Shown: positions 4,434 through 60,269, numbered from the stretch's first letter. The stretch: 64,000 nucleotides of DNA from an uncultured Mollicutes bacterium (GCA_900549975.1 URQK01000001.1:23400-87399); one strand, 5' to 3'. The notes: a model not told the origin generated them from the sequence alone. Numbers and translations: made by a program.

Positions 4434-4453
4434 ATTAGGGAGTAAGAGGTTAT

Positions 4454-6166
4454 ATGAATAAAAAAATATTAATGTTAACATCAGCTCTAACTATCGGTGT
4501 GTTAGTGGCTTCATGTGGTAAAATTGAAAATTCATCAAATTCGAATTCATCATCTACAAGTGGGGGAACAAGTATCCCTAATACATCAGTGGATATTAAA
4601 AATGATGGAACAGTCGATTTAAATACTGCTCAATTATTAATAAATGGAGCAAAAGATAAAGATATCGATAATGCTAAAAAGAGTATTGTAACAACAGTTG
4701 CTATTGGCTATGATTCTGGAAGAAGATATCAACAAAGTAGCCGTTTAGAATCAACATCATATAAAGATGATTTAACAATTGGCACAGGAACAATTGAACA
4801 CTTTTTCTATGATAATCAAGATAATGTTTTAAAAGACACATTTGATGAAGTCTATACAATAAAATCAAATAATTATATTTATATGCGTAAATATAAGAAT
4901 GGCATATTTGTTGACCAAACAGAAAAGAAAAGTCTTTTAAACTCAACTGATCCAGTGGAATTAGAATACAACTACGCTACTGCGCGTGCTGAAGTATCAT
5001 GTGGAGCAGGATTAGATGCATATATCCAATTCTTTAATGCTCTTGTTGAAGCAGGCGGACAATGTTTATATGGTTCAGCAACAGATAAAGTAACAAACAA
5101 TGTTACATTATATTTCCAAACATCTTACGAAAGTACAGATACAAATCAATTAAGATTATCGACATTTGTATTCCAATTTGATAGTGCTAGAAATGGATTT
5201 TTACAAACATTTGATTCAACACAAAGTCTTTATAGTTTAGATATTTATAATGCTGCTGAAGATAAGAGTCAAATTCAACCAACGTATTATAGCAAACAAT
5301 TATTTGTCGTTGAAAAAGGTACACTTACTGATTTCACAGGTGAATTACCAGTTGATTTAGATAGTGCATTTGTTCAACAAATTAATGTTGCATCACCAAA
5401 AACAATAATTACAGTCGGTGAAACTATTGCTATCACATGGGAAGTTTTACCAACAACAGCATTAAACAAAACAGTAGTGCTTTCTAGTAAAAACGAAAAT
5501 GTAGCACGTGTTGATGAAGATGGTCGTGTTACAGGAATTAGTAAAGGCAAAGCAGTAATTTCTGTTTTAAATCCTGAAAGTGGAGTTGAAGGTACAATTG
5601 AAATAGAAGTTGTTGATAAGAGTCAAGGAGATGCCGGTGACGATTCTAAAAAAGGACCATTAAAAGCAGCATTGCAAGAAGCATTCTACCAATTATTTAA
5701 ATTTGATTCTATGTTCCATGGTGATTCCATTTTAGGAATGTGCCTAAGTTCAGATATTCAATTAAACGCTAAGAAACTTAGTGCTTTAACAATTTCGGAA
5801 TTTGCATATGATGAAAATTTACGTAAAGCAACATATGTTGGAGATTTGAGTAAGTTAATTGATATTCTTCCTTTTGAAGATAATGGAAACGCTAATGTAT
5901 CTAATGATTACTTACAAAAGCAGTTTAGTATATATCATGACAATGTCCTTGGATTAGAAGTATATCTAAAAGGGGACAATACAATAAGTTATATTAGATT
6001 TACAATGAGAACAGATAGCGCAAGTATGAGATCAGCAGAATTTGCAACATTAACTAACGAAAACGTACAAGAAGTAATGGGACAAAAGAGTGACTTCAAA
6101 GTAGGTTACGAACGCAAAGTAGTGTTTGAAAGCGCTGGATTCTCTTACCCAGATGACAATGAATAA
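4454..6166 (+). CDS. Surface lipoprotein with a Big_2-like domain
   Basis: RBS GGGAG precedes the start. Lipobox LVASC, then an S/N-rich linker. Ig-like segment ITVGETIAITWEVLPT...VARVDEDGRVTGISKGKAVISV. Confidence 0.7.
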   Translation: MNKKILMLTSALTIGVLVASCGKIENSSNSNSSSTSGGTSIPNTSVDIKNDGTVDLNTAQLLINGAKDKDIDNAKKSIVTTVAIGYDSGRRYQQSSRLESTSYKDDLTIGTGTIEHFFYDNQDNVLKDTFDEVYTIKSNNYIYMRKYKNGIFVDQTEKKSLLNSTDPVELEYNYATARAEVSCGAGLDAYIQFFNALVEAGGQCLYGSATDKVTNNVTLYFQTSYESTDTNQLRLSTFVFQFDSARNGFLQTFDSTQSLYSLDIYNAAEDKSQIQPTYYSKQLFVVEKGTLTDFTGELPVDLDSAFVQQINVASPKTIITVGETIAITWEVLPTTALNKTVVLSSKNENVARVDEDGRVTGISKGKAVISVLNPESGVEGTIEIEVVDKSQGDAGDDSKKGPLKAALQEAFYQLFKFDSMFHGDSILGMCLSSDIQLNAKKLSALTISEFAYDENLRKATYVGDLSKLIDILPFEDNGNANVSNDYLQKQFSIYHDNVLGLEVYLKGDNTISYIRFTMRTDSASMRSAEFATLTNENVQEVMGQKSDFKVGYERKVVFESAGFSYPDDNE

Positions 6167-34358: not shown

Positions 34359-34847
34359 ATGGCAAAATTGAGTTCAGCCGCTTGCAAAAGGGTTGAAGAA
34401 ATCATCGCTGAGTATAAGAATGAAAATACACCATTAATGATGATCTTGAGTCAGGTTCAAAAAGAATATGGCTATATTCCTTTTGAAGTTCAAGAAATCA
34501 TATCTGAAAAATTAGGTATACCTGTTTCAGAAATATATGGTGTAGTTACTTTTTACTCATTTTTTTCTTTGAAACCTAAAGGCAAATTTGTTATTGGGGT
34601 TTGTTTAGGAACTGCATGTTACGTTAAAGGTGCACAACAAATATGTGACAAGTTTTCCGAACTTTTAGGTATTAAACCTGGAGAAACAACTGAAGATGGA
34701 TTGTTTACTATTGATGCCTTACGTTGCATTGGAGCATGTGGTATTGCCCCAGCAGTAAGTATTAATGGGAAAGTATATCCTAAGATGTCAGTTAATCAAG
34801 TACAACAAGTAATCAATGAATATCGTAAGTTAGGAGGAGAAGCATAA
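34359..34847 (+). CDS. hydC: [FeFe]-hydrogenase gamma subunit / NuoE-like [2Fe-2S] thioredoxin-like ferredoxin (HydC/HndA)
   Basis: NuoE-type cysteine pattern (CxxxxC...CxxxC). Confidence 0.8.
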   Translation: MAKLSSAACKRVEEIIAEYKNENTPLMMILSQVQKEYGYIPFEVQEIISEKLGIPVSEIYGVVTFYSFFSLKPKGKFVIGVCLGTACYVKGAQQICDKFSELLGIKPGETTEDGLFTIDALRCIGACGIAPAVSINGKVYPKMSVNQVQQVINEYRKLGGEA

Positions 34848-36712
34848 TGATTAAAACAGAGCAAGAATTAAAAGATAAAATTGCTAAATGCACTCACTGC
34901 TTAGATATTAAATTTAGTGGAGAAAACGGAAAACGCGCTATTGTAGTTTGTGGTGGTACGGGCTGTTTATCTTCGCACTCTGATGAAATTAAAAATCGAT
35001 TAGAAGAATTAATTAAAGAACATAATTTAGAAGATAAAGTAACGGTTAACCAAGTTGGTTGTTTTGGTTTCTGCTCTCAAGGACCATTTGTTAAAATTTT
35101 CCCAGAAGATACTTTATATCATATGGTTAAAGTAGAAGACTGTGAAGAAATTATTGAAAAAGATATCATGGGTAAAGAAGTAATCGATCATTTATTAATT
35201 ACTGATCCACATACCCATCAAAAAGTCGTTAAACAAGATGACTTGAATTTCTATAAAAAACAAGTACGAATTGCTTTACATGGTTGTGGCGTTATTAATC
35301 CAGAAGATATTAATGAAGGGTTAGGCTATGGTGCTTTCCAAGGCTTAGCTCGTGCTTTAAAAATGGATAGACAAGAAGTAATTAATGAAATACTTGCTTC
35401 TGGATTACGCGGCCGTGGTGGTGGCGGATTCCCAACAGGAAGAAAATGGCAATTTGCTTATAACCAAGATAGCGAAGAAAAGTATGTTGTATGTAATGGT
35501 GATGAAGGCGATCCAGGTGCCTTTATGGATCGTTCAATCTTAGAAGGTAATCCATTAGCGGTTATTGAAGGTATGATGATTGCAGGTTACGCAATTGGAG
35601 CAAAGAATGGTTATTTCTATGTTCGTGCTGAATATCCAATTGCTGTACATCGTTTAACTGTTGCTATTAAAGAAGCTGAAGAATTAGGATTAATTGGTGA
35701 CAATATTTTAGACTCAGGTTTCTCATTTAGAGTTCATTTAAGATTAGGCGCTGGTGCTTTCGTTTGTGGTGAAGAAACAGCCTTATTAAACTCAATTCAA
35801 GGACAACGTGGAATGCCACGTCCTCGTCCTCCATTCCCTGCTGTAAAGGGATTATGGGATAAACCAACCATTGTGAATAACGTTGAAACTTTAGCTTGTG
35901 TTCCTTATATTATTCGTGAAGGTGTTAAAGAATTCACTAAGTATGGAACAGAAAAATCTAAAGGTACAAAAGTATTTGCTTTGGGTGGAAAAATAAATAA
36001 TGTTGGATTAGTAGAAATTCCAATGGGAACTACACTTCGTGAATTAATTTATGATATTGGTGGCGGTATCCCAAATGATAAAAAATTCAAAGCCATTCAA
36101 ACTGGTGGTCCATCAGGAGGATGTTTGACAAGTGAATATTTAGATACTCCAATCGACTTTGATAACTTAGTTGCTCTTGGCTCAATGATGGGCTCAGGCG
36201 GTGCAATTGTTATGGATGAAGACAACTGTATGGTCGACGTTGCTAAATTCTATATGGAATTTATTTGTGATGAATCATGTGGTAAGTGCTCACCATGTCG
36301 TATTGGTACAAAGAGAATGTTAGAATTATTAACTAAGATTACCAATGGACAAGGAACACTAGAAGATATTGATCGTTTAGAAGAATTAGGAAGAGCTACA
36401 CAAGCAGGTTCATTATGTGCTTTAGGCCAAACTGCTGCGAATCCAATTATTTCAACAATGAGTCACTTCAAAGATGAATATATTGCTCACGTAGTGGATA
36501 AAAAATGTCCAGCAAAAGTATGTAAAAAACTTATGGAATATTATATTAAACCAGAAGTTTGTAAGAAATGTAGTAAATGTGCACGTGGATGTCCAGTTAA
36601 CGCTATTCATGGTGAAATTGGTAAAACTCCATATGTCATTGATTCCGCTAAATGTATTAAATGTGGTATGTGTATAAGTGCATGTCCATTTAAAGCAATT
36701 ATTAAGAGATAG
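34847..36712 (+). CDS. hydB: [FeFe]-hydrogenase beta subunit / NuoF-like NAD(P)H-binding flavoprotein with Fe-S domains (HydB/HndC)
   Basis: N-terminal 2Fe-2S Trx-like domain. NuoF core GRGGGGFPTGRKW for FMN/NADH. SCGKCSPCR cluster. C-terminal 2x[4Fe-4S] ferredoxin (CKKCSKCARGCP, CIKCGMCISACP). Confidence 0.85.
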   Translation: MIKTEQELKDKIAKCTHCLDIKFSGENGKRAIVVCGGTGCLSSHSDEIKNRLEELIKEHNLEDKVTVNQVGCFGFCSQGPFVKIFPEDTLYHMVKVEDCEEIIEKDIMGKEVIDHLLITDPHTHQKVVKQDDLNFYKKQVRIALHGCGVINPEDINEGLGYGAFQGLARALKMDRQEVINEILASGLRGRGGGGFPTGRKWQFAYNQDSEEKYVVCNGDEGDPGAFMDRSILEGNPLAVIEGMMIAGYAIGAKNGYFYVRAEYPIAVHRLTVAIKEAEELGLIGDNILDSGFSFRVHLRLGAGAFVCGEETALLNSIQGQRGMPRPRPPFPAVKGLWDKPTIVNNVETLACVPYIIREGVKEFTKYGTEKSKGTKVFALGGKINNVGLVEIPMGTTLRELIYDIGGGIPNDKKFKAIQTGGPSGGCLTSEYLDTPIDFDNLVALGSMMGSGGAIVMDEDNCMVDVAKFYMEFICDESCGKCSPCRIGTKRMLELLTKITNGQGTLEDIDRLEELGRATQAGSLCALGQTAANPIISTMSHFKDEYIAHVVDKKCPAKVCKKLMEYYIKPEVCKKCSKCARGCPVNAIHGEIGKTPYVIDSAKCIKCGMCISACPFKAIIKR

Positions 36713-36723
36713 GGGTGAGAAAC

Positions 36724-38496
36724 ATGGAAAAAGTAAATATCAAAATTGAAGGTCACTCTTATCAAGTTGATGCCGGTTTAACTATTTTAGAGGCAGCCAA
36801 AGAGTGTGGATATACAATTCCTACTTTATGTGCCTTTAATCATGGAGAATGCTCTAAGGGATCATGTAGGGTTTGTTTAGTAGAAGTTAAAGGAGCAAGA
36901 GGTTTAGTTGCTTCTTGTGTATATCCAGTTAATGAAGGAATGGAAATCATTATTTCTTCTCCAAAAGCTGTTAGTGCACGTAGAACTAGTGTGGAATTAT
37001 TATTATCAAATCACTCAAAAAACTGCCAACAATGCACTAAAAATGAATATTGTGAGTTATTAAATGTTGCTAAAATTACTGGTGCTAGAGACAATATGTA
37101 TGAAGGAAGTAAAACTCCAGTTACTATTGATGAGTTAACTCCATCTATCATTCGTGATACATCTAAATGTGTATTATGTGGAAGATGTGTGGAAAGATGT
37201 AAAAATGCACAAGGAATTGGTATTTTAGGATTTGAAAATCGTGGCTTTAAAACTATTGTAGCGCCAGCCTATAATCGTTCAATGAAAAACTCACCATGCA
37301 TTTTATGTGGACAATGTGTTAATGTTTGCCCTACTGGTGCTTTAATGGAAAAAAGCGAAATTGATAAACTTGATCAAGCTAAAAAAGAAGGTAAGTATAT
37401 TGTTGTACAAACCGCTCCAGCAGTGCGCGCTGCTTTAGGTGAAGAATTTGGTATGCCAATAGGAACTTCTGTTACTGGTAAGATGGTCGCGGCTTTAAAA
37501 CGTTTAGGCTTTGATAAGGTTTATGATACGAACTTTGCTGCAGATTTAACAATTATGGAAGAAGCCACGGAATTAGTACATCGTATTAAAGAAGGTGGAC
37601 AACTTCCAATGATTACCTCATGTTCACCAGGTTGGGTGAATTATGCAGAATATTTCTATGGTGATTTATTAGGACACTTATCAAGTTGTAAATCTCCTCA
37701 TGAAATGGAAGGGGCAATAATTAAATCTTATTTTGCAGAGAAAAAAGGTTTGGATCCAAAAAATATCTTTGTTGTATCAATTATGCCTTGTACTGCTAAA
37801 AAATATGAAAAAGAACGTCCAGAAAATGCTTCTAAAGAAGGATTAAAAGATGTAGATTGTGTCTTAACCACACGTGAATTAGCAAGATTAATCAAAAGAT
37901 CCGGTATTGACTTTAGAAGATTACCAGATGAAGAATTTGATCAAGACTTGTTAGGTGAATATACCGGCGCGGGAGTTATATTTGGTGTAACTGGCGGCGT
38001 TATGGAAGCAGCTTTAAGAACAGCATACTTCACAATTACTGGTAAAGAACATGATTTAATTACATTTAAAGAAGTTCGTGGCTTTGATGGTTTAAAAGAA
38101 GCGGAAATTGATTTAAATGGAACAAAAATTAAAGTAGCTGTTGCTCATGGCATGAAAAATGCTAAACCATTATTAGATGATATTCGTGCAGGTAAATCAC
38201 CATATACGTTTATTGAAATTATGGGATGTCCAGGCGGATGTATCAATGGTGGTGGACAACCATTTGTTAAACCATGCTTCTTACCAAATGAAGACGCTAA
38301 TATATTAGATACATATAAGGAAAAACGTGCAAAAGTGCTATATTCTGAAGATGAAAAGCAAGTATTAAGACAATCTCATCGTAATACTCAAATTCAACAA
38401 CTTTATAAAGATTATTTAGGTGAACCAAATAGTCATAAAGCACATGAATTGTTGCATACTTCATATCATGCAAGAGAGCGTTATCCTGAAAAATAA
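36724..38496 (+). CDS. hydA: [FeFe] hydrogenase catalytic subunit (HydA/HndD) with a non-canonical L1 motif
   Basis: N-terminal 2Fe-2S and 2x4Fe-4S ferredoxin domains. H-cluster motifs L2 MPCTAKKYE and L3 EIMGCPGGCINGGGQP are present. L1 reads TSCSPGW rather than TSCCPxW. ATG 36724 lies after a GGGGTGAG RBS (the ORF track GTG is at 36715). Confidence 0.85.
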   Translation: MEKVNIKIEGHSYQVDAGLTILEAAKECGYTIPTLCAFNHGECSKGSCRVCLVEVKGARGLVASCVYPVNEGMEIIISSPKAVSARRTSVELLLSNHSKNCQQCTKNEYCELLNVAKITGARDNMYEGSKTPVTIDELTPSIIRDTSKCVLCGRCVERCKNAQGIGILGFENRGFKTIVAPAYNRSMKNSPCILCGQCVNVCPTGALMEKSEIDKLDQAKKEGKYIVVQTAPAVRAALGEEFGMPIGTSVTGKMVAALKRLGFDKVYDTNFAADLTIMEEATELVHRIKEGGQLPMITSCSPGWVNYAEYFYGDLLGHLSSCKSPHEMEGAIIKSYFAEKKGLDPKNIFVVSIMPCTAKKYEKERPENASKEGLKDVDCVLTTRELARLIKRSGIDFRRLPDEEFDQDLLGEYTGAGVIFGVTGGVMEAALRTAYFTITGKEHDLITFKEVRGFDGLKEAEIDLNGTKIKVAVAHGMKNAKPLLDDIRAGKSPYTFIEIMGCPGGCINGGGQPFVKPCFLPNEDANILDTYKEKRAKVLYSEDEKQVLRQSHRNTQIQQLYKDYLGEPNSHKAHELLHTSYHARERYPEK

Positions 38497-43554: not shown

Positions 43555-45612
43555 ATGAGAAAAAAATTATTTTGTCTATTAAGTGTTTCTTGTTTATTAG
43601 CACTCGGTGCTTGTAATCAAGGAGGATCATCTACGTCTAATAGTGGCGCATCTACTCAACCTTCAACAAGTTTGAAAGAACGTTACAACTGTATTGACAT
43701 AAGTGAAGCATTAGAAATTGCTTCTAAAGCTAGTGAGCCAACACAAGAAAGATATTATCTTTATGGCAAAATTACTAGTGTTTCCAATTATGATTATGGA
43801 AGCATGGAAATTGAAGATGGAACTGGTAAGATTTATATTTATGGAACGTATAGTGAAGATGGAAGTATCCAGTACAAAAATTTAGAATATAAGCCAGATG
43901 TAAATGATGAAATTGTTGTTTATGCTACTCTTCAAACTCATAGTGGACAACCAGAAGTAAAAAATGCATGGTTAATTGATTATGTCGATAGTAATACACA
44001 ATTTGATGTTAGCGAATATGAAAAAATGACTATTACTAAAGCTAGAGAAGCGAAAAAAGGCAAAAAAGTTTTGGTGTCAGGTGTTGTAAGTAAAAAAACA
44101 TATGCGACAGGAAAGAAAGAAAACGGCTTTTATCTTGTTGATAATACATCTTCTATTTATATTTACGATTCATCGACTGTATTAAAAGTAAAAGAAGGTA
44201 ATGCTATTACTTTAGCGGCAACAAAAGACTACTGGATTTTAGAAGATGAAGTGCCTTTTGCTGAAAAGTATGGTTACAATGGCTCATGCCAATTAACCAA
44301 AGGACATATTATTAGTAATGATGAAGGTAGAAATGATATTGATACAAGCTGGGTTGAAGAAACAACTATAAAACAAATTATGGACACTCCAGTTACTGAA
44401 AATATTACAAATAAAATTTTTAAAGCAAATGCCTATATAGCTAAATCTCAAAAAGAAGGATATGTTAACTATTATATTGATGATTTAGATGAAACTACAG
44501 GATCTTATGTTTATACACAATGTAATGGCAGTGATTTGAATTGGCTTGAGAAATTTGATGGGAAGATTTGTACAGTGTTGGTTGTGGCAATCAATGCTAA
44601 ATCTACAATATCAGGATGTTCTTGGAGATTTATTCCAATTTCTGTTAAAGACGAAGGATTTACTTTTGATAAGGCTAATGTCGGACAATTCGTATATGAT
44701 TATAAAGTTAAAACCTTGTTTAAAGATGTGTATACAGGCGATCCAAAAGTAATGGTTCCAGTAACTGCTTCTTCATCACTTTTAGGTTTTGCAAACGCAA
44801 GTATTAGTTATTCTTCTAGCAATGAAAAAGTTGCGTATTTTAGCGAAGATGAAGGTGTTTTAACATTTCATACTAATGAAGTAGGCAATGCTACGATAAC
44901 AGTTAAAATTAATTACGAAAATAATGCGACATTTGTTAAAACATTTAATGTATCAGTTACTTTGCCAAAAGTTACAGAATCTATAACAGTTAAAGAAGCT
45001 ATTGATAGTGAACTTAACTCTGTTGTAACTGTTAAAGGTATTGCTGGTCCATCATTAGTGAATAAAGTAGGATTTTATTTGATTGATGAAAGTGGCGCAA
45101 TCGCGATTACGACATCTTCAGAAACTATTAGTTCTATTAGTTTAGGAAATGAAGTAATATTAAAGGGAACGCGTTCGCAATTAGGAGTTGTTCAAGATAA
45201 ATCAGTTGGCGAAATTTTTCTTGATAACTGTGAATTAGTGTCAAATTTGTATGGAAAACATGATTACTCAACCGCATCATTTGATGGTAGTAAAACTTTA
45301 GCGGATTTAGCTAAAATTAAAGCGACGGAAAATGCTACAGCACAAGTATATGTATTTGAGGGAACTTTTGAAAAAGTTGTACAACCCAAGTACTCTAATA
45401 TGTATGTTAAAAATGGTGATACAAAAATCCGTTTATATTGTTCAAATGCTGCTCAATATGAATGGTTGGATGAGTTTGAAAATCAAACTGTCACCATTGA
45501 AATGGCTCTATGCAACTGGAATGGTAAAACTTATTACACTGGTTGTGTATTATCAGTCACAGCAAACGGTGTAAAAACCATGAACACTCTTGTTTATAGC
45601 CAAAACAATTAG
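43555..45612 (+). CDS. Surface lipoprotein with repeated OB-fold-like (BOF/tRNA_anti-like) modules and a Big_2-like domain
   Basis: Lipobox LGAC. Three OB-like segments of type YLYGKITSV...GSMEIEDGTGKIYIYG, VLVSGVVSKK...GFYLVDNTSSIYIYD and VVTVKGIAGPSLVNKVGFYLIDESGAIAITT. An Ig-like segment lies around aa 400-470. Confidence 0.6.
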   Translation: MRKKLFCLLSVSCLLALGACNQGGSSTSNSGASTQPSTSLKERYNCIDISEALEIASKASEPTQERYYLYGKITSVSNYDYGSMEIEDGTGKIYIYGTYSEDGSIQYKNLEYKPDVNDEIVVYATLQTHSGQPEVKNAWLIDYVDSNTQFDVSEYEKMTITKAREAKKGKKVLVSGVVSKKTYATGKKENGFYLVDNTSSIYIYDSSTVLKVKEGNAITLAATKDYWILEDEVPFAEKYGYNGSCQLTKGHIISNDEGRNDIDTSWVEETTIKQIMDTPVTENITNKIFKANAYIAKSQKEGYVNYYIDDLDETTGSYVYTQCNGSDLNWLEKFDGKICTVLVVAINAKSTISGCSWRFIPISVKDEGFTFDKANVGQFVYDYKVKTLFKDVYTGDPKVMVPVTASSSLLGFANASISYSSSNEKVAYFSEDEGVLTFHTNEVGNATITVKINYENNATFVKTFNVSVTLPKVTESITVKEAIDSELNSVVTVKGIAGPSLVNKVGFYLIDESGAIAITTSSETISSISLGNEVILKGTRSQLGVVQDKSVGEIFLDNCELVSNLYGKHDYSTASFDGSKTLADLAKIKATENATAQVYVFEGTFEKVVQPKYSNMYVKNGDTKIRLYCSNAAQYEWLDEFENQTVTIEMALCNWNGKTYYTGCVLSVTANGVKTMNTLVYSQNN

Positions 45613-52335: not shown

Positions 52336-55300
52336 ATGAAAATGTTTGATATTAATGATTTAAAGTCAATTAAAATTTCTCTTGCTTCTCCAGAAAAAAT
52401 TCGTGCATGGTCTCATGGTGAAGTTAAAAAGTTTGAAACTATTAACTATCGTTCTCAAAAACCAGAAATGGGCGGATTATTCTGTGAAAAAATATTCGGA
52501 CCTTCTAAAGATTATGAATGTCACTGTGGTAAATATAAGAAAATTCGTTATCAAGGTGTCACTTGTGAAAAATGTGGTGTCGAAGTTATTTCTAAAGAAG
52601 TTAGACGTGAAAGAATGGGCCATATTGAGCTCGCTTCACCAGTAACTCATATTTGGTATTTAAAGAGTGTACCATCACGCATAGGTCTAGTACTTGATAT
52701 ACCTGCAAAACAACTTGAAGAAATTATTTATTTCGCTGCTCACGTTGTTATTAATCCAGGTACATCTAAATTCTTGACAAAAGGACAACACATTTCTGAA
52801 AAGAATGGTCCAGCAGATTTATTAGTTGTAATCAAAGACTTTGTTGATACATTAGACAAAGATAGTTATGACTATACTCGCGCTAACGAGTTAATTAGCA
52901 AATTAGAAAATTATCCACAAGAACCTTTTGATTTCCAAACTACAGCAGCATTTATTTCTAAACATACTGGTGCTGAATTTGGCGAAGGAGCAGAAGCAAT
53001 CAAAAAATTATTAAAAGAAATTGATCTTGATGCTGAATCTGCAAAACTTCGTGCTCAAATCAAAGATTCTAAGAAAGATAAACAAAAGAAATTAATGAAA
53101 CGTTTAGCAGTTATCGAAGCTTTCCGTTCTTCTGGAAACAGACCAGAATGGATGGTCTTAGACTGCATTCCTGTTTTACCACCAGACTTACGTCCAATGT
53201 GTAAACTTGAAGGTGGACGCTTCGCTGTTTCTGATTTAAACGAATTATATCGTCGTGTTATTACCCGTAATAATCGTTTAAAAAGATTAATCGAAATGAA
53301 TGCTCCATCTGTTATTCTTTTAAATGAAAAACGTATGGTGCAAGAAGCTGTTGATGCTTTAATCGATAATGGTCGTAGAAATAAACCTGTACAAGGTCCT
53401 AATGGCCGCACATTTAAATGTTTAACAAGTATCTTAAAAGGTAAACAAGGCCGTTTCCGTCAAAACTTACTTGGTAAACGTGTTGACTATTCAGGTCGTT
53501 CAGTTATTGCTGTTGGACCAGACTTAAAGATGTATGAATGTGGTATTCCACGTGAAATGGCTATTCAATTATTACGTCCATATATTGTCTCTTTATTAAT
53601 TAAAAGAGGATATGCTTCTGCTCATAAACAAGCAGAAAAATTAATTGATCGTTATGATGAAAAGGTATTTGACATTGTTGAAGAAATCATTAGCGACCAC
53701 CCAGTATTATTAAACCGTGCTCCTACATTACATAGACTTGGTATTCAAGCATTCCAACCTAAGTTAGTAGCAGGTCGTGCAATTCGTTTGCACCCATTAG
53801 TCTGTACTGGATTTAACGCTGACTTCGATGGTGACCAAATGGCTGTTCACTTACCTTTATCAAAATCCGCTCAAGAAGAAGCTATTGATTTAATGTTAGC
53901 AAGTAATAATATTTTAGGACCTAAGGATGGTAAACCAATTGTTACTCCATCTCAAGACATGGTTCTTGGTAATTACTATTTAACACTTGAATCAACAAAA
54001 GAGTACTTTGAAGATCGTGCTAAAAAGTGTGAAGAAATGGGCGACCATGAAGAAGCTGAACGCTTCACCTTATATGCAGAAAGTGAAGGAAAAGTATTCC
54101 GCAACATTGATGAAGTTGAACGTGCTTATTTAACAAAACAAATCAACTTACATAACCGTATTGCTATTCCAGGTAAAGAAATCAATAAAGATAATTTAAC
54201 TGAAGAAGAATATAATGGTTATTTAATTACTACAGTTGGTAAGATAATCTTTAATAAGATTTATCCTGCTGATTTCCCTTATTTAAATAATCCAAGTAAT
54301 AAGAAAAACTTTGAACAAACTATTGCTAGTGACTTTGTACCAAAAGGGACAAATATCAAAGAATATATTGCTAATCAACCAATTAGAAAACCATATTGTA
54401 AGAAAGATTTAGGTACAATTATTAACCAAATCTTTAAGAGATATGGTACAACTAAAACATCTGTTGTTCTTGATAAGATGAAAGATCAAGGCTTTAAGTA
54501 TTCTACTTACGCTGGTATTACTGTTTCTATCGCTGATATTAATGTTGTTGATGAAAAGAAAACATACATTGAAGAAGGAGATAAGGCCGTTAATACTGTT
54601 AATAGCATGGCTAAAAAAGGTTATTATACCGATGCTGAAAGACATAAGAAAGTTGTTGAAATTTGGGAAAACATTCGTAAAAAATTCGAAGTTGCTCTTA
54701 AAAAACACATGGATACCGAAATTGATAACCCAATCTATATGATGGCTAATTCCGGTGCTCGTGGTAACATTTCAAACTTTACTCAATTATCCGCGATGCG
54801 TGGACTTATGGCTAACCCATCTGGTGAAACTATTGAATTACCAATTAAATCATGTTTCCGTGAAGGTATTAAAGTTAGCGAATTCTTCATTGCTACTCAC
54901 GGTGCCCGTAAAGGTGGAGCTGATACTGCATTAAAGACTGCTGACTCAGGTTACTTAACAAGAAGATTAGTTGATGTTTCTCATGACGTAGTTGTTAGAG
55001 AAGAAGATTGCGGTACTGATGTTGGATTTGTAGTAAGCGAAATTAGAGATACTGCAAGAGATCAAGTAATCGTTCCATTAAAAGACCGTTTATTTGGAAG
55101 ATATTCATTACATGATATCATTGATTCTGCTACTGGTGAAATTCTTGTTCCAGGCAATACATTAATGTCTGAAACTGATGCTCAAAGAGTAGTAGATGCT
55201 GGTATTGATCACGTTGAAATTAGGTCTTTACTTGGATGTCAAACAAAACATGGCGTATGTAAACATTGCTATGGCTTAAACTTAGCAACTGGTAAAGAAG

Positions 55301-56199
55301 TTGAAATTGGCGAAGCAGTTGGTATTATGGCTGCTCAATCAATTGGTGAACCTGGTACTCAATTAACCATGCGTACATTCCATACTGGTGGTGTTGCTGG
55401 TAGCGATATTACTCAAGGTTTACCTCGTGTTCAAGAATTGTTTGAATCACGTAATCCAAAAGGACGTGCCGTTATATCTAAGATTAGCGGTAAAGTCAAA
55501 GATATTAAAGAAAATAATGGTTGTTATACAATCACTATTGAAAATGAAGAAACAAATGATACCAAAGTTGAAACAACAACATTTGGTGCAAGACTTCGTG
55601 TTAAAGTTGGCGATGAAGTAAGACCTGGTCAAAAGATTACTGAAGGTGCTATTTACCCAGTTGAATTATTAATTAATGCTGGTGTTTATGAAGTTGAAAA
55701 ATACATCATTAAAGAAGTACAAAAAGTCTATCGTGCTCAAGGTATTGAAATTTCTGATAAACACATTGAAGTTATTGTTTCACAAATGTTACGTAAAGTA
55801 CACATTCTTGATGGCGGAGATACAAAACTCTTACCAGATACTTTAGTAGATAAAGAAGCATTTACTGAAGCAAATACAGAAATATTGCTTAAAGGTGGAA
55901 AACCTGCAGTATGTGTACCAGAAATTTTACGTATCACTAAAGCTGCTCTTGAAACAGAATCATTCTTATCTGCTGCTTCATTCCAAGAAACTGCAAAAAT
56001 TCTTACTGATGCCGCTATCAAAGGTAAGACTGATATCTTACATGGTTTAAAAGAAAACGTTATTACTGGTAAGTTAATTCCAGCAGGACGTGGATTATTA
56101 AGCGATGAGCAAGAAGATGAATTACTAGAAACATTTGATGTTAAATCAAAGATGGACTTAGTAAAACAACAATATATTGAAAAGTTCGATCAAAAATAG
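52336..56199 (+). CDS. rpoC: DNA-directed RNA polymerase subunit beta'
   Basis: 1287 aa. Zn finger CHCGKYK...CEKCG and the NADFDGD catalytic motif. Confidence 0.97.
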   Translation: MKMFDINDLKSIKISLASPEKIRAWSHGEVKKFETINYRSQKPEMGGLFCEKIFGPSKDYECHCGKYKKIRYQGVTCEKCGVEVISKEVRRERMGHIELASPVTHIWYLKSVPSRIGLVLDIPAKQLEEIIYFAAHVVINPGTSKFLTKGQHISEKNGPADLLVVIKDFVDTLDKDSYDYTRANELISKLENYPQEPFDFQTTAAFISKHTGAEFGEGAEAIKKLLKEIDLDAESAKLRAQIKDSKKDKQKKLMKRLAVIEAFRSSGNRPEWMVLDCIPVLPPDLRPMCKLEGGRFAVSDLNELYRRVITRNNRLKRLIEMNAPSVILLNEKRMVQEAVDALIDNGRRNKPVQGPNGRTFKCLTSILKGKQGRFRQNLLGKRVDYSGRSVIAVGPDLKMYECGIPREMAIQLLRPYIVSLLIKRGYASAHKQAEKLIDRYDEKVFDIVEEIISDHPVLLNRAPTLHRLGIQAFQPKLVAGRAIRLHPLVCTGFNADFDGDQMAVHLPLSKSAQEEAIDLMLASNNILGPKDGKPIVTPSQDMVLGNYYLTLESTKEYFEDRAKKCEEMGDHEEAERFTLYAESEGKVFRNIDEVERAYLTKQINLHNRIAIPGKEINKDNLTEEEYNGYLITTVGKIIFNKIYPADFPYLNNPSNKKNFEQTIASDFVPKGTNIKEYIANQPIRKPYCKKDLGTIINQIFKRYGTTKTSVVLDKMKDQGFKYSTYAGITVSIADINVVDEKKTYIEEGDKAVNTVNSMAKKGYYTDAERHKKVVEIWENIRKKFEVALKKHMDTEIDNPIYMMANSGARGNISNFTQLSAMRGLMANPSGETIELPIKSCFREGIKVSEFFIATHGARKGGADTALKTADSGYLTRRLVDVSHDVVVREEDCGTDVGFVVSEIRDTARDQVIVPLKDRLFGRYSLHDIIDSATGEILVPGNTLMSETDAQRVVDAGIDHVEIRSLLGCQTKHGVCKHCYGLNLATGKEVEIGEAVGIMAAQSIGEPGTQLTMRTFHTGGVAGSDITQGLPRVQELFESRNPKGRAVISKISGKVKDIKENNGCYTITIENEETNDTKVETTTFGARLRVKVGDEVRPGQKITEGAIYPVELLINAGVYEVEKYIIKEVQKVYRAQGIEISDKHIEVIVSQMLRKVHILDGGDTKLLPDTLVDKEAFTEANTEILLKGGKPAVCVPEILRITKAALETESFLSAASFQETAKILTDAAIKGKTDILHGLKENVITGKLIPAGRGLLSDEQEDELLETFDVKSKMDLVKQQYIEKFDQK

Positions 56200-56220
56200 T
56201 AATTAATTCGAGGCTAAACT

Positions 56221-56249
56221 AAACCATCTCATTTTGAGGTGGTTTTTTT
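56221..56249 (+). terminator. Rho-independent terminator after rpoC
   Basis: AAACCATCTCA-TTT-TGAGGTGGTTT hairpin followed by TTTTTT. Confidence 0.75.
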
Positions 56250-56280
56250 AATATAATTAGTTAAAAAAATCACAAAACCT

Positions 56281-56309
56281 TTGTGTTTATGAAGTGCATT
56301 TGCTATAAT
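56281..56309 (+). promoter_or_regulatory. Promoter of the inserted metalloprotease-lipoprotein genes (TTGTGT, 17 nt, TATAAT)
   Basis: Hexamers plus an AAGGAGG RBS before ATG 56354. Confidence 0.5.
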
Positions 56310-56353
56310 ACTATATACTTATATATCTTAAGAAGTTTAAGGAGGTTATTTCT

Positions 56354-58027
56354 ATGAAAAAACTATTAAAAAGTTTATTTGCACTTGCTATAGTGGCCAC
56401 AACAGCCTTTTCATTAACTGCTTGTGGAGGACCAAGTAGAGTAAAAAGATCAACTTTTGTAAACTCTTTGTCGCAAGTTCGTAAAAGTAGAGGATATAAA
56501 GCTGATTTACCATCAACTGGTAAACAAAAAGTATTAGTTATTCCTGTTCAATTTAGTGATTACCCATGTAGTTCTACTAAATTAGCTAAATATGGTGGCT
56601 GTACTGGCTTAAGAGATGATATTAGAAAAACTATGTTTGGAAAATCCGAAGAAACAAACTGGGAATCTTTATCATCATTCTATAAAAAATCAAGTTATGG
56701 AAAACTAAATATTACTGGTAAAGTTACTGATTGGTTTACACCAGAGTTATCTGCTCACCAATACGCTTTACAAATGGAAGGGAATAATACAGGTATTTCT
56801 GATAGAATTCTAGACGAAGCTGTTGAATGGTATAAGAGCAAATATAATGATATCGATAGTTTTGATCAAAACAAAGATGGATATATTGATTCAGTTTATT
56901 TAATTTATACAGTACCAAAAAGATCACAAATTTTACCAACAAGCACAGGTATTGATACAACTGATTTATTCTGGGCTTATACATATTGGTCAAATTCACA
57001 TACTGACATTAATCTTGATACTGATAAAGATATATTACCAGTAGCATCGACATACTTCTGGGCAAGCGTCGACTTTATGTATGAAGATAAAATGCTTAAA
57101 GATGGAAAATATGTTGAATGTAAAGATAAAAATGGTGACTGGTTACCAGATGCTCACACATTCATTCATGAATCTGGTCATATTATGGGATTACCTGACT
57201 ATTACACTTATGGTCCACAAAATGGTATTGATGACTATGGTGCATTAGGTGGAATTGATATGATGGATAATAACGTCGGTGATCATAATGCATATTCTAA
57301 AATGATTTATGGTTGGACAGAACCATATGTTGTAAGTAATGAAACTGTCAAAGGTGATTCAACAACACTTACAATTAAGCCATTCTATTCTTCAGGTGAC
57401 TTCATTCTTGTTAATGCTAATTGGGATGGATCAATGTTTAGTGAGTATTTATTATTAGAATACTATCAACCAGAAGGGGTAAATAAGTATGATGCAGAGC
57501 ATCAATTTGCCGGTTCTTACCCACAAGTATTCCAACAACCTGGTGTTAAGGTATATCATGTTGACTCACGTTTAGCTGGTTTTGACCTTGTAAGCGGTAA
57601 TGTTACAGTTGCTAGTAGTGGTATTTTCGTTGATTTTATTGATGAAATTTCAAATAGATTCTCATATTGTTATATTGCTAATGATAACTCAATTACAAGA
57701 AGTGCAATTCCTGACTATAAATTAATCGAATTGTTGGAACCATCTGGCGAATGTTCATTTAAACAAAAGAATGACAAAGGACAATATATTACTCCTTACG
57801 CTACAGATGCGTCATTATTCCATGAAGGCGATTCTTTTGGCTATGAAGGTAAAGCTTACGCTGACTATAAATTACATACAGGACAAAATATTATTACTGT
57901 AGATGGTGTTCCAACTGTTGATAAAAATGGATACGAAGGCGACGAGTTAGGTTTTAAATTTGTAATTGAAAAAATGGATAAAAATGGTGTAACCATTAAA
58001 TTCGAAAAAACCGCAAGCGCATATTAA
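56354..58027 (+). CDS. M6/immune-inhibitor-A-like HExxH zinc metalloprotease lipoprotein
   Basis: Lipobox LTAC. N-terminal VLVIPVQFSDYPCS and HESGHIMGLPDYY zinc motif. GGIDMMDNN block follows. Confidence 0.65.
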   Translation: MKKLLKSLFALAIVATTAFSLTACGGPSRVKRSTFVNSLSQVRKSRGYKADLPSTGKQKVLVIPVQFSDYPCSSTKLAKYGGCTGLRDDIRKTMFGKSEETNWESLSSFYKKSSYGKLNITGKVTDWFTPELSAHQYALQMEGNNTGISDRILDEAVEWYKSKYNDIDSFDQNKDGYIDSVYLIYTVPKRSQILPTSTGIDTTDLFWAYTYWSNSHTDINLDTDKDILPVASTYFWASVDFMYEDKMLKDGKYVECKDKNGDWLPDAHTFIHESGHIMGLPDYYTYGPQNGIDDYGALGGIDMMDNNVGDHNAYSKMIYGWTEPYVVSNETVKGDSTTLTIKPFYSSGDFILVNANWDGSMFSEYLLLEYYQPEGVNKYDAEHQFAGSYPQVFQQPGVKVYHVDSRLAGFDLVSGNVTVASSGIFVDFIDEISNRFSYCYIANDNSITRSAIPDYKLIELLEPSGECSFKQKNDKGQYITPYATDASLFHEGDSFGYEGKAYADYKLHTGQNIITVDGVPTVDKNGYEGDELGFKFVIEKMDKNGVTIKFEKTASAY

Positions 58028-58042
58028 TATTTATTTACTAAA

Positions 58043-58076
58043 AACTATATCATTTAAAATGATATGGTTTTTTTTG
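58043..58076 (+). terminator. Terminator between the two paralogous protease genes
   Basis: AACTATATCAT-TTAAA-ATGATATGGTT hairpin followed by TTTTTTTT. Confidence 0.55.
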
Positions 58077-58124
58077 TTCTTTAATTATGCTAAACTTATT
58101 TCAACGAAAGGTAAGAAGACGTTA

Positions 58125-59633
58125 ATGAAAAAAAAGAATTTTTTAATTTTAGGATTAGTATTATTTTTATCAGGATGCAGTGCGTCTTCTTTATCAACGT
58201 TTAATAGTTATACTAAAGATAAAGATGATTATAGGGAAATACAAACGAATGGTTATTATAAACCTTCTGAATATAATTTAAGTTATCAAGAAATACTTCA
58301 AGATTATCCATATTCAAGTAGTGAAAAGAATATTACGATACCTTCTACGGGAGAAAGACAGTTGCTAGTTATTCCAGTGGATTTTACTGATTATAGTTGT
58401 TCAGTATTAAATGGTGGTTGCAAAAAGGCTAAAAATAAGATTCACAATGTGTTTTTTGGCGTTGACAATGTTAATGCTTTCAACTCAGTAACATCATATT
58501 TTAATAGTTCTAGTTTTGGCAAATTACATTTACGCGGTGAAGTAATGGACTGGTATCATAGTGAATATTCTACAAGTGATTTAATTGATAATAAAATGCT
58601 TGTAAATAATATCGCAAAATCGGCAATTAAATATTATAAAGACCAAGGAGTGGACTTATCTAAATTTAATACTGATGGCGATAAATATATTGATGGAATT
58701 GCTTTTGTTTATTCAGCACGTTATCAAAAAAAAGATACAGCATTATGGGCATATCAATCTGCAGTGACGTCTTATTCTTCAGAAGAATTTAAAGAAGATA
58801 ATCTAGCTAGAACTTATTTATGGGCGAGTTATTATTATATGAATAGTGATGATGACTTTGCAAAAGTCGATGCTCATACTTATATCCATGAGACAGGTCA
58901 TTTATTAGGATTAAGTGACTATTATTCTCAAGATGCCACACAGTTATTTAAGCCAATGGGTGGTATGGATATGATGGACTATAATTTAGGCGATGAAAAC
59001 ACATTCTCTAAAATGCTTTTAAATTGGACAAGGCCTTATGTTATTAAAGATGAAACCACTATAACTATTAATGCTTCTTATAAAAATGGAGATTGTATTT
59101 TAGTGCCTGCAAAATCATGGAATGGATCGGCAATGGATGAATATCTATTAATTGAACTATATTCTCCTAAAGGATTAAATGCTCATGATAGCAAAGTAGA
59201 GTACACTACAGGAGATAAGAATTTTTCTTTAATGACTAAACCAGGCATTAAAATAATGCATGTAGACGCACGTATTGGACATTATATGACATTTAATCAA
59301 AATCCTTTTATCGGTTATGATGGTGATGAAGGAGTAGAAGAAACGCTGAAAAAATATGATTCTTCTGGGCAAAGACATTATCGCAAACTAGCCCATTCTA
59401 ATACTTTATCTTACTCAGAAGACAAAATACCTTTGGTTTGCATTGTAGATAAGCATGGTGATAATTATTTAAAGCAAGGTAATTTACTCACTAATGATAG
59501 CCTTTATGTCGAAGGGGATGTTTTTAAAAAAGACTTCACATTTAATAATGGTGCTAAATTAGAATATAACATTAGAATTGATAAATTGAGTTCTTATAAA
59601 GTAACATTAACATTCGCTAAAAAAATTAAATAA
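58125..59633 (+). CDS. Second M6-like HExxH metalloprotease lipoprotein (paralogue of the upstream gene)
   Basis: Start MKKKNFLILGLVLFLSGC (lipobox LSGC). The ORF-track start at 58059 lies inside the upstream terminator. Motifs LLVIPVDFTDYSCS and HETGHLLGLSDYY, then GGMDMMDYN. Confidence 0.65.
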   Translation: MKKKNFLILGLVLFLSGCSASSLSTFNSYTKDKDDYREIQTNGYYKPSEYNLSYQEILQDYPYSSSEKNITIPSTGERQLLVIPVDFTDYSCSVLNGGCKKAKNKIHNVFFGVDNVNAFNSVTSYFNSSSFGKLHLRGEVMDWYHSEYSTSDLIDNKMLVNNIAKSAIKYYKDQGVDLSKFNTDGDKYIDGIAFVYSARYQKKDTALWAYQSAVTSYSSEEFKEDNLARTYLWASYYYMNSDDDFAKVDAHTYIHETGHLLGLSDYYSQDATQLFKPMGGMDMMDYNLGDENTFSKMLLNWTRPYVIKDETTITINASYKNGDCILVPAKSWNGSAMDEYLLIELYSPKGLNAHDSKVEYTTGDKNFSLMTKPGIKIMHVDARIGHYMTFNQNPFIGYDGDEGVEETLKKYDSSGQRHYRKLAHSNTLSYSEDKIPLVCIVDKHGDNYLKQGNLLTNDSLYVEGDVFKKDFTFNNGAKLEYNIRIDKLSSYKVTLTFAKKIK

Positions 59634-59645
59634 ATATAATTTTTA

Positions 59646-59671
59646 AGTCCACAATAATATGTGGATTTTTT
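59646..59671 (+). terminator. Terminator after the second protease gene
   Basis: TCCACA-ATAAT-ATGTGGA hairpin followed by TTTTTT. Confidence 0.6.
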
Positions 59672-59714
59672 AATTGTTGCACTTACGTATTTACTAACAA
59701 ATTTAAAAAAAATG

Positions 59715-59744
59715 TTGACTTGATATATTTATATATCGTATAAT
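59715..59744 (+). promoter_or_regulatory. Promoter of the str operon (TTGACT, 18 nt, TATAAT) with a ~105-nt leader
   Basis: Consensus-like hexamers upstream of rpsL. Confidence 0.55.
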
Positions 59745-59849
59745 TACTACGCATGTGCATAAGACCTAGTGGTCGTTTTTAAAAAGACGATATTGATACA
59801 CCGGGAATTGTGTGTTGCTAGAACAAATATTTGAAAGGAGAACATACTA

Positions 59850-60269
59850 ATGCCAACTATTAATCAATTAGTACGTAATGGTCGTAGTAAAACTACATTT
59901 AAATCCAAAGCTCCTGCATTAAACAAGAGATGGAATTCTTTAAGAAAGAAAGAAACATCACAAGATGCAGCACAAAAACGTGGTGTCTGTACCCGTGTCG
60001 GTACTATGACTCCTAAAAAACCAAACTCAGCTTTACGTAAGTACGCTCGTGTACGTTTATCAAATGGTTATGAAGTAACTGCTTATATTGGCGGCGAAGG
60101 ACATAACTTACAAGAGCACTCAACCGTAATGATCCGTGGTGGACGTGTTAAGGATTTACCAGGTGTTCGTTACCATATTATCCGTGGAACATTAGACTGC
60201 GCAGGTATTGAAAAACGCCGTCAATCTCGTTCATTATACGGAACTAAAAAACCTAAAGAAAGCAAATAA
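59850..60269 (+). CDS. rpsL: 30S ribosomal protein S12
   Basis: Conserved S12 (PTINQLVR...KKPNSALRK). Confidence 0.97.

Follow-up and report, generated by a model that had tools for sequence, protein, structure and literature searches.

Paired M6-family metallopeptidase genes at the rpoC-rpsL junction of uncultured Bacilli: a probably ancient module of predicted surface lipoproteins

The interval between rpoC and rpsL in a 64,000-nucleotide stretch of DNA from an uncultured Mollicutes bacterium (GCA_900549975.1 URQK01000001.1:23400-87399; the whole stretch is hereafter the window) is 3650 bp long and contains two open reading frames (ORFs) on the same strand, which we denoted M6a (the 'a' paralogue, adjoining rpoC) and M6b (the 'b' paralogue, adjoining rpsL). 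The evidence from profiles, structural models and related genomes makes it likely that the two genes encode lipid-anchored extracellular zinc endopeptidases of the M6 family, and that they form an ancient, vertically inherited module at this junction. An earlier reading of the window, made from its sequence alone (the sequence-only reading), had proposed two tandem, divergent M6/InhA-like lipoprotein metalloproteases with their own promoter and a terminator after each gene. That description was borne out, in contrast to the reading's two evolutionary claims, a datable insertion and diversifying selection. Catalysis, export, lipidation, constitutive expression independent of rpoBC and str, and a physiological role are what we infer for the pair.

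M6a and M6b are paralogues that share 32% identity across 455 amino acids (aa; E 4e-69), and no third M6 copy was found elsewhere in the window. The family assignment by hidden Markov models that the sequence-only reading had recommended placed both proteins in M6. The Pfam model Peptidase_M6 (PF05547) scored 32.8 bits for M6a and 24.8 bits for M6b, both above the gathering cutoff of 22. The NCBIfam model TIGR03296 scored 108.2 bits for M6a (E 7e-31) and 90.6 bits for M6b (E 1.6e-25), and the alignments covered nearly the full length of the model (positions 3-275 and 2-274 of 286) over ~270-315 residues. Relatives of the two proteins carry the public names 'M6 family metalloprotease-like' (JGI, NCBI) or 'immune inhibitor A', and the family comprises 1013 clusters at 50% identity (E <= 1e-30).

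Both proteins contain the extended zinc-binding consensus HExxHxxGxxD, in which Asp is the third ligand (Table 1). This Asp-type metzincin motif has been described for snapalysins and thuringilysins (PMC12237041). In an alignment of 105 homologues, Y284, M303 and M304 of the D-M-M-D block and several other Asp, His and Arg residues were invariant in addition to the four residues of the zinc motif, and the consensus was kept in 65 of the 67 copies located in rpoC-rpsL intervals. The D-M-M-D block (M303/M304) lies 20 residues past the Asp ligand and is, at the sequence level, a candidate Met-turn. A further loop, FDxDxDGYID, resembles calcium-binding loops; it gave a weak Pfam EF-hand match, and EF-hand proteins also appeared in a profile search of the Protein Data Bank (PDB). 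At the DNA level, the M6b zinc motif falls inside a block shared by the paralogues (D2). Of the motif blocks that the sequence-only reading had quoted, FIHESGHIMGLPDYY (M6a) / YIHETGHLLGLSDYY (M6b) and GGIDMMD (M6a) / GGMDMMD (M6b) match the quotation. The block VLVIPVQFSDYPCS / LLVIPVDFTDYSCS is likewise present, although its second-gene copy, LLVIPVDFTDYSCS, differs slightly from the quoted pattern.

It is very improbable that M6a and M6b are catalytically dead surface proteins, such as adhesins or binding proteins, that have merely retained a protease fold. Pseudo-protease evolution does occur in the family, as seen in the middle paralogue of a three-copy array (L065:10950-12569), which is still full length and has lost HExxH. 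However, both genes of the window keep all zinc ligands, the catalytic Glu, the Tyr of the DYY motif and the DMMD block, which do not vary among the 105 homologues and belong to the segment under the strongest constraint, the catalytic core, where the ratio of nonsynonymous to synonymous substitution rates (dN/dS) is 0.01-0.1.

Structural models predicted with AlphaFold2 (AF2) reached a mean local confidence (pLDDT) of 94 and a predicted template modelling score (pTM) of 0.92 for M6a, and 89 and 0.89 for M6b. For both models the best match among solved folds was the zymogen of Bacillus anthracis InhA2 (4YU6/4YU5; E 8e-13 for M6a and 2.8e-13 for M6b, probability 1.0), followed by other metzincins. 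Both predicted models thus show a metzincin, InhA-like catalytic-domain fold. The structural check proposed in the sequence-only reading gave a confident fold for the two proteins, and the ligands of the zinc site are supported at the level of sequence.

Several observations weigh against the assignment. Both TIGR03296 scores fall below the curated cutoff of that model, 110.8 bits. Sequence searches of the PDB with a single protein (phmmer) or with a 20-sequence family profile did not reach InhA; they reached only the zinc site of snapalysin (E ~0.01), plus spurious EF-hand and internalin matches. Structural alignment to InhA gave 12-13% identity and a template modelling (TM) score of 0.5, and the likeness is seen by profile and fold alone. 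A literature search on this lipoprotein subfamily or its rpoC-rpsL placement returned nothing relevant and no biochemistry for any member. No MAM or other C-terminal Pfam domain was detected in M6a or M6b at E <= 1. The accessory domains of the InhA subfamily (a VEG-like domain with a grafted MAM domain) and its pro-peptide latency were not found, features that are not required of M6 proteins overall. Judged by profiles and models, M6a and M6b are divergent, predicted lipoprotein-anchored members of M6, and not InhA orthologues.

Both proteins begin with a predicted lipoprotein signal (MKKLLKSLFALAIVATTAFSLTAC in M6a and MKKKNFLILGLVLFLSGC in M6b), in which a positively charged n-region and a hydrophobic h-region precede a lipobox that fits [LVI][ASTVI][GAS]C (MKKLLKSLFALAIVATTAFS-LTAC in M6a and MKKKNFLILGLVLF-LSGC in M6b). 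The lipobox Cys was present in 20 of 20 diverse homologues (alignment A1) and in at least 90% of the 105 homologues (alignment A2), and the Cys of M6b was conserved in alignment A4. A lake and river clade with a single copy (L025, L042, L044, L046, L056, L060-L062, L066 and L078) has an rpoC-rpsL interval of ~1736 bp that contains only an a-type gene, whose product carries a plain signal peptide or anchor in place of the lipobox Cys. Since this clade keeps the a-type gene alone and without that Cys, it has by implication lost the b copy and changed its mode of anchoring.

The age of the locus was judged from related genomes. A scan of one genome per species yielded 466 stretches encoding M6 relatives, of which 87 loci were examined in context. 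Nearly all matches were in metagenome-assembled genomes (MAGs) labelled as uncultured Bacilli, Erysipelotrichales or Bacillota; the samples came from gut, lakes, rivers and digesters. The shared gene order was L1-L10-L12-methyltransferase-rpoB-rpoC-[M6][M6]-rpsL-rpsG-fusA-tuf, and the M6a homologues located there were 42-62% identical to M6a. In ~40 of the 87 loci, which represent species-level MAGs, the M6 genes were flanked by rpoC and/or rpsL and were present in 1, 2, 3 or 4 copies; where full-length RpoC of these MAGs was compared on columns aligned to Bacillus subtilis, it shared 66-79% identity with that of the window. The remaining loci were dispersed paralogues, with neither rpoC nor rpsL within flanks of up to 10 kb, several of the contigs being much shorter. 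A second sample was drawn independently of M6 by exact match to the RpsL of the window, which gave 10 distinct contexts. The M6 pair was present in all 10 of them and in all close MAGs.

The RpoC proteins of 25 carrier genomes (3 of which end before rpsL) were 66.5-99.5% identical to that of the window over 791 columns aligned to Bacillus subtilis, and the RpoC of B. subtilis was 61% identical on the same columns. Because carrier identity falls to 66.5%, with B. subtilis itself at 61%, the carrier clade is deep as measured by RpoC. A neighbour-joining (NJ) tree built from 55 interval copies placed the copy nearest rpsL in each multi-copy locus in a 'b' clade and the copy nearest rpoC in an 'a' clade, which also contained the single copies and the extra middle copies. 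The groupings inside the 'a' clade matched those of RpoC. A reservation is that clade depth was estimated by RpoC identity and by NJ trees lacking support values, and not by genome taxonomy. Within 55900-60100 of the window there were no flanking direct or inverted repeats and no integrase, the sole substantial repeats being the paralogous coding blocks, and the only tRNA of the window lies at 1812-1884. The pair in 10 of 10 contexts, the RpoC depth, the positional a/b orthology, the congruent trees and the lack of mobile signatures together indicate that the placement and the a/b duplication are most likely ancient and vertically inherited, and that lineages have since gained or lost copies. 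The M6 family was already known; what is modestly new is that an a/b pair and its conserved promoter have long been fixed between rpoC and rpsL in a deep clade of uncultured Bacilli.

These comparisons bear directly on the framing of the sequence-only reading, which had seen the pair as inserted into a conserved junction and had suggested comparing rpoC-rpsL intervals among relatives to date the event. The comparison was made, and the placement proved old. A recently acquired horizontal island might be suggested by the self-contained character of the unit, with its own promoter and terminators, by its slightly low GC content (0.27-0.33, against 0.30-0.40 in the flanks), and by the further genes that can occupy the interval in relatives (a TfoX-like ORF, a permease, and an HTH_38 gene that is possibly IS30-like). 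However, the pair occurs in every context sampled independently of M6 and in carriers down to ~66% RpoC identity, the a and b copies are orthologous by position with congruent trees, and the locus is free of flanking repeats, integrase and tRNA. For the window lineage, this explanation is effectively refuted. The same reading had named ordinary core genes of non-protease function at this locus as the outcome that would overturn it. Core-like presence at the locus was indeed found in related genomes, but the genes belong to a protease family.

Other genes were seen in the interval or beside it. In one gut-metagenome strain whose RpsL is identical to that of the window, M6b and rpsL are separated by an inserted opposite-strand gene of 434 aa that has an HTH_38 domain and is perhaps an IS30-like transposase (L088:4396-5700, minus strand). 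In deeper lineages, an extra ORF of 454-467 aa lies directly after rpoC and before the M6 genes (L020:8466-9854, L040:8467-9870, and also L014, L019 and L024). The two of these that were scanned, from L020 and L040, matched Pfam Xan_ur_permease, and the equivalent 465-aa ORF of L065 (7891-9288) had no Pfam match. A 108-aa ORF between M6b and rpsL (L005:13229-13555, also in L016 and L006) gave a weak TfoX_N match of 25.1 bits, below the gathering score. Some public labels appear unreliable: one contig labelled Alistipes shahii (L081, CAVBUY010000001.1) encodes an M6a relative ~38% identical, like the Bacilli-labelled MAGs, and looks mis-binned or mis-named, as do several freshwater MAGs labelled Staphylococcus or Staphylococcaceae.

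The two genes evolve faster than their neighbours. Relative to the two closest genomes, dN/dS was 0.11 and 0.11 for M6a and 0.11 and 0.14 for M6b, compared with 0.02-0.06 for rpoB, rpoC and fusA. Among 13 strains, the median aa identity was 99.0% for the RpoC C-terminus and 99.5% for FusA, 94.2% for M6a (minimum 86%) and 90.1% for M6b (minimum 72%), with a median M6 dN/dS of 0.11-0.12. Overall, the M6 genes change ~10x faster than rpoC, and their synonymous divergence (dS) was 3-4.5x that of rpoBC and fusA (window positions 56354-59633 against L008, L009 and L088-L097). In sliding windows of 25 codons, dN/dS never exceeded 1; the maximum, 0.86, was at residues 390-414 of M6b, and the homologous loop of M6a reached 0.53. 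The diversifying selection suggested by the sequence-only reading is thus not supported across the genes, and both copies are kept under purifying selection. In strain L088, RpoC groups with the window (100%) and M6a with another lineage (98% vs 91%), and this discordant grouping indicates allele exchange, probably by recombination at the locus. No 'switch' residues specific to the a or b clade were found at the 85% threshold, and few positions were constrained in one clade only, so a change of mechanism is not clearly indicated. Overall, the two genes evolve faster under purifying constraint, one loop is relaxed or locally diversifying, and some recombination has taken place.

The same variation could be read as antigenic pressure on host-directed enzymes, which would serve virulence or immune evasion, as for Bacillus InhA, by cleaving host defence molecules such as mucins, IgA and antimicrobial peptides. 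Assemblies from the human gut commonly contain the window lineage (its exact RpsL was found in 545 blocks of the collection), and the top fold match is InhA2. A weak fold match to the IgA protease of Thomasclavelia ramosa was also obtained (9ekk; E 5e-3 and 2.5e-2, probability 0.2). The ~10-fold faster change relative to rpoC, the fall of M6b to 72% identity among strains with FusA at 99-100% where compared, the allele exchange in L088 and the single loop with dN/dS of 0.86 would also fit. However, selection is purifying across the genes with no window above 1, and the likeness to IgA protease is at noise level (TM 0.2). Furthermore, the same module at the same address occurs in MAGs from lakes, rivers and digesters, which have no animal host, and a purely host-directed function is disfavoured for this reason. 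We consider such a role unlikely.

The boundaries of the unit and the signals within it are listed in Table 1. The best PDB sequence matches of the rpoC product were bacterial beta' subunits, and it is 61% identical to the beta' of B. subtilis over 795 positions. M6b was first called as an ORF of 524 aa (58059-59633). Its true start is most likely the ATG at 58125, since the upstream ATG at 58059 falls within a hairpin and orthologues begin at the position of MKK. An artefact of the Mollicutes genetic code (UGA=Trp) was rejected, all ORFs being intact under table 11.

Table 1 Features of the rpoC-rpsL interval and its boundaries, in window positions
Feature	Position	Strand	Description or basis
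rpoC (RNA polymerase beta')	52336..56199	+	1287-aa ORF; upstream boundary gene
rpoBC intrinsic terminator, hairpin and T-run	56221..56252	+	terminator scan; hairpin 56221-56245, -13.4 kcal/mol, z -5.1
Putative protease-unit promoter	56281..56309	+	-35-like TTGTGT, 17-nt spacer, extended -10 TGcTATAAT; direct sequence reading
Shine-Dalgarno AAGGAGG, 8 nt before M6a ATG	56339..56345	+	direct sequence reading
M6a, predicted lipoprotein M6-family zinc metallopeptidase, 557 aa	56354..58027	+	ORF, HMMs, AF2 model
M6a signal peptide, lipobox L-T-A-C (Cys24)	56354..56425	+	sequence; Cys conserved in alignments
M6a zinc-binding motif HESGHIMGLPD (H272, E273, H276, D282)	57167..57199	+	four residues invariant in 105 homologues
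AT-rich hairpin and T-run between M6a and M6b, partial or leaky terminator	58040..58072	+	-13.0 kcal/mol, z -7.4
M6b, predicted lipoprotein M6-family zinc metallopeptidase, 502 aa	58125..59633	+	corrected start
M6b signal peptide, lipobox L-S-G-C (Cys18)	58125..58178	+	sequence; weak Pfam LPAM_1 match, E 0.02
M6b zinc-binding motif HETGHLLGLSD (H255, E256, H259, D265 from Met 58125)	58887..58919	+	invariant columns, alignment A4
Intrinsic terminator closing the protease unit	59645..59674	+	terminator scan; hairpin 59645-59668, -12.6 kcal/mol, z -4.5
str-operon promoter TTGACT, 18 nt, TATAAT	59715..59744	+	11/12 consensus positions match
Conserved rpsL 5' leader, ~105 nt	59745..59849	+	outside the protease unit, marks its downstream boundary; long invariant blocks, 7 genomes
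rpsL (S12), then rpsG and fusA	59850..60269	+	downstream boundary; ORFs; Pfam labels of identical gene in relatives

The promoter of the unit reads as the sequence-only reading had given it, with TATAAT at 56304-56309. Its -10 block, TTTGnTATAATAnTAT, was invariant upstream of M6a across 8 genomes, the most distant of which is 79% identical in RpoC (75% by tblastn). The block is not a promoter type reiterated in the window, where the only other exact copy lies on the opposite strand at 5284, near chance expectation. At the position of the rpoC terminator, footprinting of eight genomes showed a hairpin in every relative examined, with a different stem sequence in each. The hairpin between M6a and M6b is an inverted repeat (I8) with 16-nt arms that are 94% complementary; being AT-rich, it was missed by the consensus terminator scan. 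The a and b genes of some relatives adjoin directly or overlap, and ancestral co-transcription is therefore probable. Downstream, the TTGAC of the str promoter was invariant in 7 genomes, and its -10 element read GTATAAT or GTATACT in 6 of the 7, being diverged in L005. Given its own promoter, the flanking terminators and the conserved str promoter, the protease unit is predicted to be a transcriptionally insulated module.

The rpsL leader contains blocks invariant across 7 genomes (GCATGTGCA..GACCTAGTGGTCGTTTTT..GATACACCGGGAATTGTGTG), together with a small hairpin and a U-run. An Rfam search of the rpoC-rpsL interval, rpsL leader included, returned no RNA element at the gathering threshold or at E <= 1, and the leader may be an undescribed autoregulatory leader of a ribosomal protein.

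In the mechanism that we propose, a Sec signal peptide would export each protein, and lipidation of the lipobox Cys would tether it to the membrane on its outer side. The catalytic zinc would be bound by both His residues and the Asp of HExxHxxGxxD, with Glu as the general base. The conserved DxDxDG-type loop probably binds calcium, and a C-terminal beta-rich domain is predicted on each protein. Transcription would start at the conserved extended -10 promoter of the module, insulated upstream by the rpoBC terminator and downstream by the terminator of the module and the str-operon promoter, and M6b would probably be expressed through read-through of the weak internal hairpin. The a/b duplication and the rpoC-rpsL address would date back at least to the last ancestor shared by a deep clade of uncultured Bacilli and would have been inherited vertically since then, with lineage-specific gain (up to 4 copies) or loss (to 1).

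As for function, our leading but tentative guess is that the pair degrades extracellular proteins in general at the cell surface and thereby supplies peptides and amino acids, the specificities of the two paralogues overlapping without being identical. This nutritional role is favoured because the module is kept in both host-associated and free-living lineages, with varying copy number and many dispersed paralogues. Two points count against it: it draws on context and breadth of distribution, with no peptide transporter linked to the module, and the raised dS and the discordant L088 allele would equally fit a surface antigen exposed to hosts or phages.

It is quite unlikely that the two enzymes instead serve housekeeping, whether in quality control or as sheddases or maturases acting on lipoproteins and surface proteins of the cell itself, a role that would explain core-like conservation beside housekeeping operons. 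The pair is fixed in all close strains and retained across the deep clade, its conserved promoter between rpoBC and str looks constitutive, the catalytic core is strongly constrained, and Big_2 and InlB-B repeats occur in other large surface proteins encoded in the window. However, a copy number of 1-4, loss of the b type in one lineage and many dispersed paralogues form a pattern seen more often in enzymes that serve nutrition or face the environment than in a dedicated maturase. There is also no conserved linked substrate gene, and the known M6 enzymes (InhA, PrtV) act on exogenous proteins.

A bolder proposal, which we regard as doubtful, is that the a/b pair is a core, growth-coupled surface module on which these bacteria depend and which has been kept since before order-level splits, for example as an obligate a/b hetero-complex feeding an auxotrophic cell. 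If this were true, the presence and address of the pair would be a synapomorphy of the lineage and a clue for cultivation. The carriers are abundant uncultured Bacilli of gut and environment, none of whose surface enzymes is known to have been studied experimentally. A pair fixed at a highly conserved chromosomal junction, with its own conserved promoter and long retained, is likely to be physiologically important, and it also provides a convenient phylogenetic marker for the clade.

Elsewhere in the window, an unusual gene order is seen between 11000 and 48700. A two-gene [FeFe]-hydrogenase (34847-38496) and cysS (38646) are preceded by SecY (28153) and rpoA (32187), which presumably belong to the ribosomal S10/spc/alpha clusters, and are followed by L1-L10-L12-methyltransferase-rpoBC. 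By its predicted genes, the organism is evidently a fermentative anaerobe. Two large ORFs of 529 and 685 aa (87-1676 and 43555-45612) had no Pfam match at 1e-5, and two adjacent large ORFs with InlB B-repeat and Big_2 domains (2142-6166) probably encode surface proteins.

Among known systems, the closest are InhA1 and InhA2 of B. thuringiensis, B. cereus and B. anthracis (MEROPS M6 thuringilysins; PDB 4YU5/4YU6), extracellular enzymes of Firmicutes that share PF05547, HExxHxxGxxD and the best fold match with the window proteins. Compared with InhA2, the window proteins are ~200 residues shorter and have no Pfam-detectable MAM domain, and the TM score normalised to the target was 0.34-0.42. They are predicted to be lipoprotein-anchored, whereas InhA is secreted, and the pair has a fixed rpoC-rpsL address, whereas InhA belongs to a virulence regulon. 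As Arolas et al. reportedly described in 2016, InhA2 is kept latent by the free N-terminal alpha-amino group of its pro-peptide, which binds the zinc. Such latency is unlikely to apply to M6a and M6b, since their predicted mature N-terminus is a lipidated Cys.

The TIGR03296 proteins share a near full-length alignment of the domain, although the scores of the window proteins lie just below the curated cutoff. Snapalysin, the small neutral protease of Streptomyces (MEROPS M7; 1C7K), shares the HEtGHxLGLxDxY site, including the Tyr two residues past the Asp. However, it is a minimal enzyme of 132 aa, the match spans ~30 residues, and the NF033628 score of 16 bits against a cutoff of 300 gives no family membership. 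PrtV of Vibrio cholerae differs in being a 102-kDa secreted enzyme of a Gram-negative bacterium with N- and C-terminal processing. It is likewise an extracellular M6 metalloprotease (PMC2613228).

With regard to the junction itself, Bacillus and Staphylococcus have the order rpoC, an L7Ae-like gene (ybxF/rplGB) and rpsL, so that the same place holds a non-essential extra gene. In the clade of the window, by contrast, the junction holds not a small ribosomal-protein-like gene but an array of one to four protease-family genes with its own predicted promoter.

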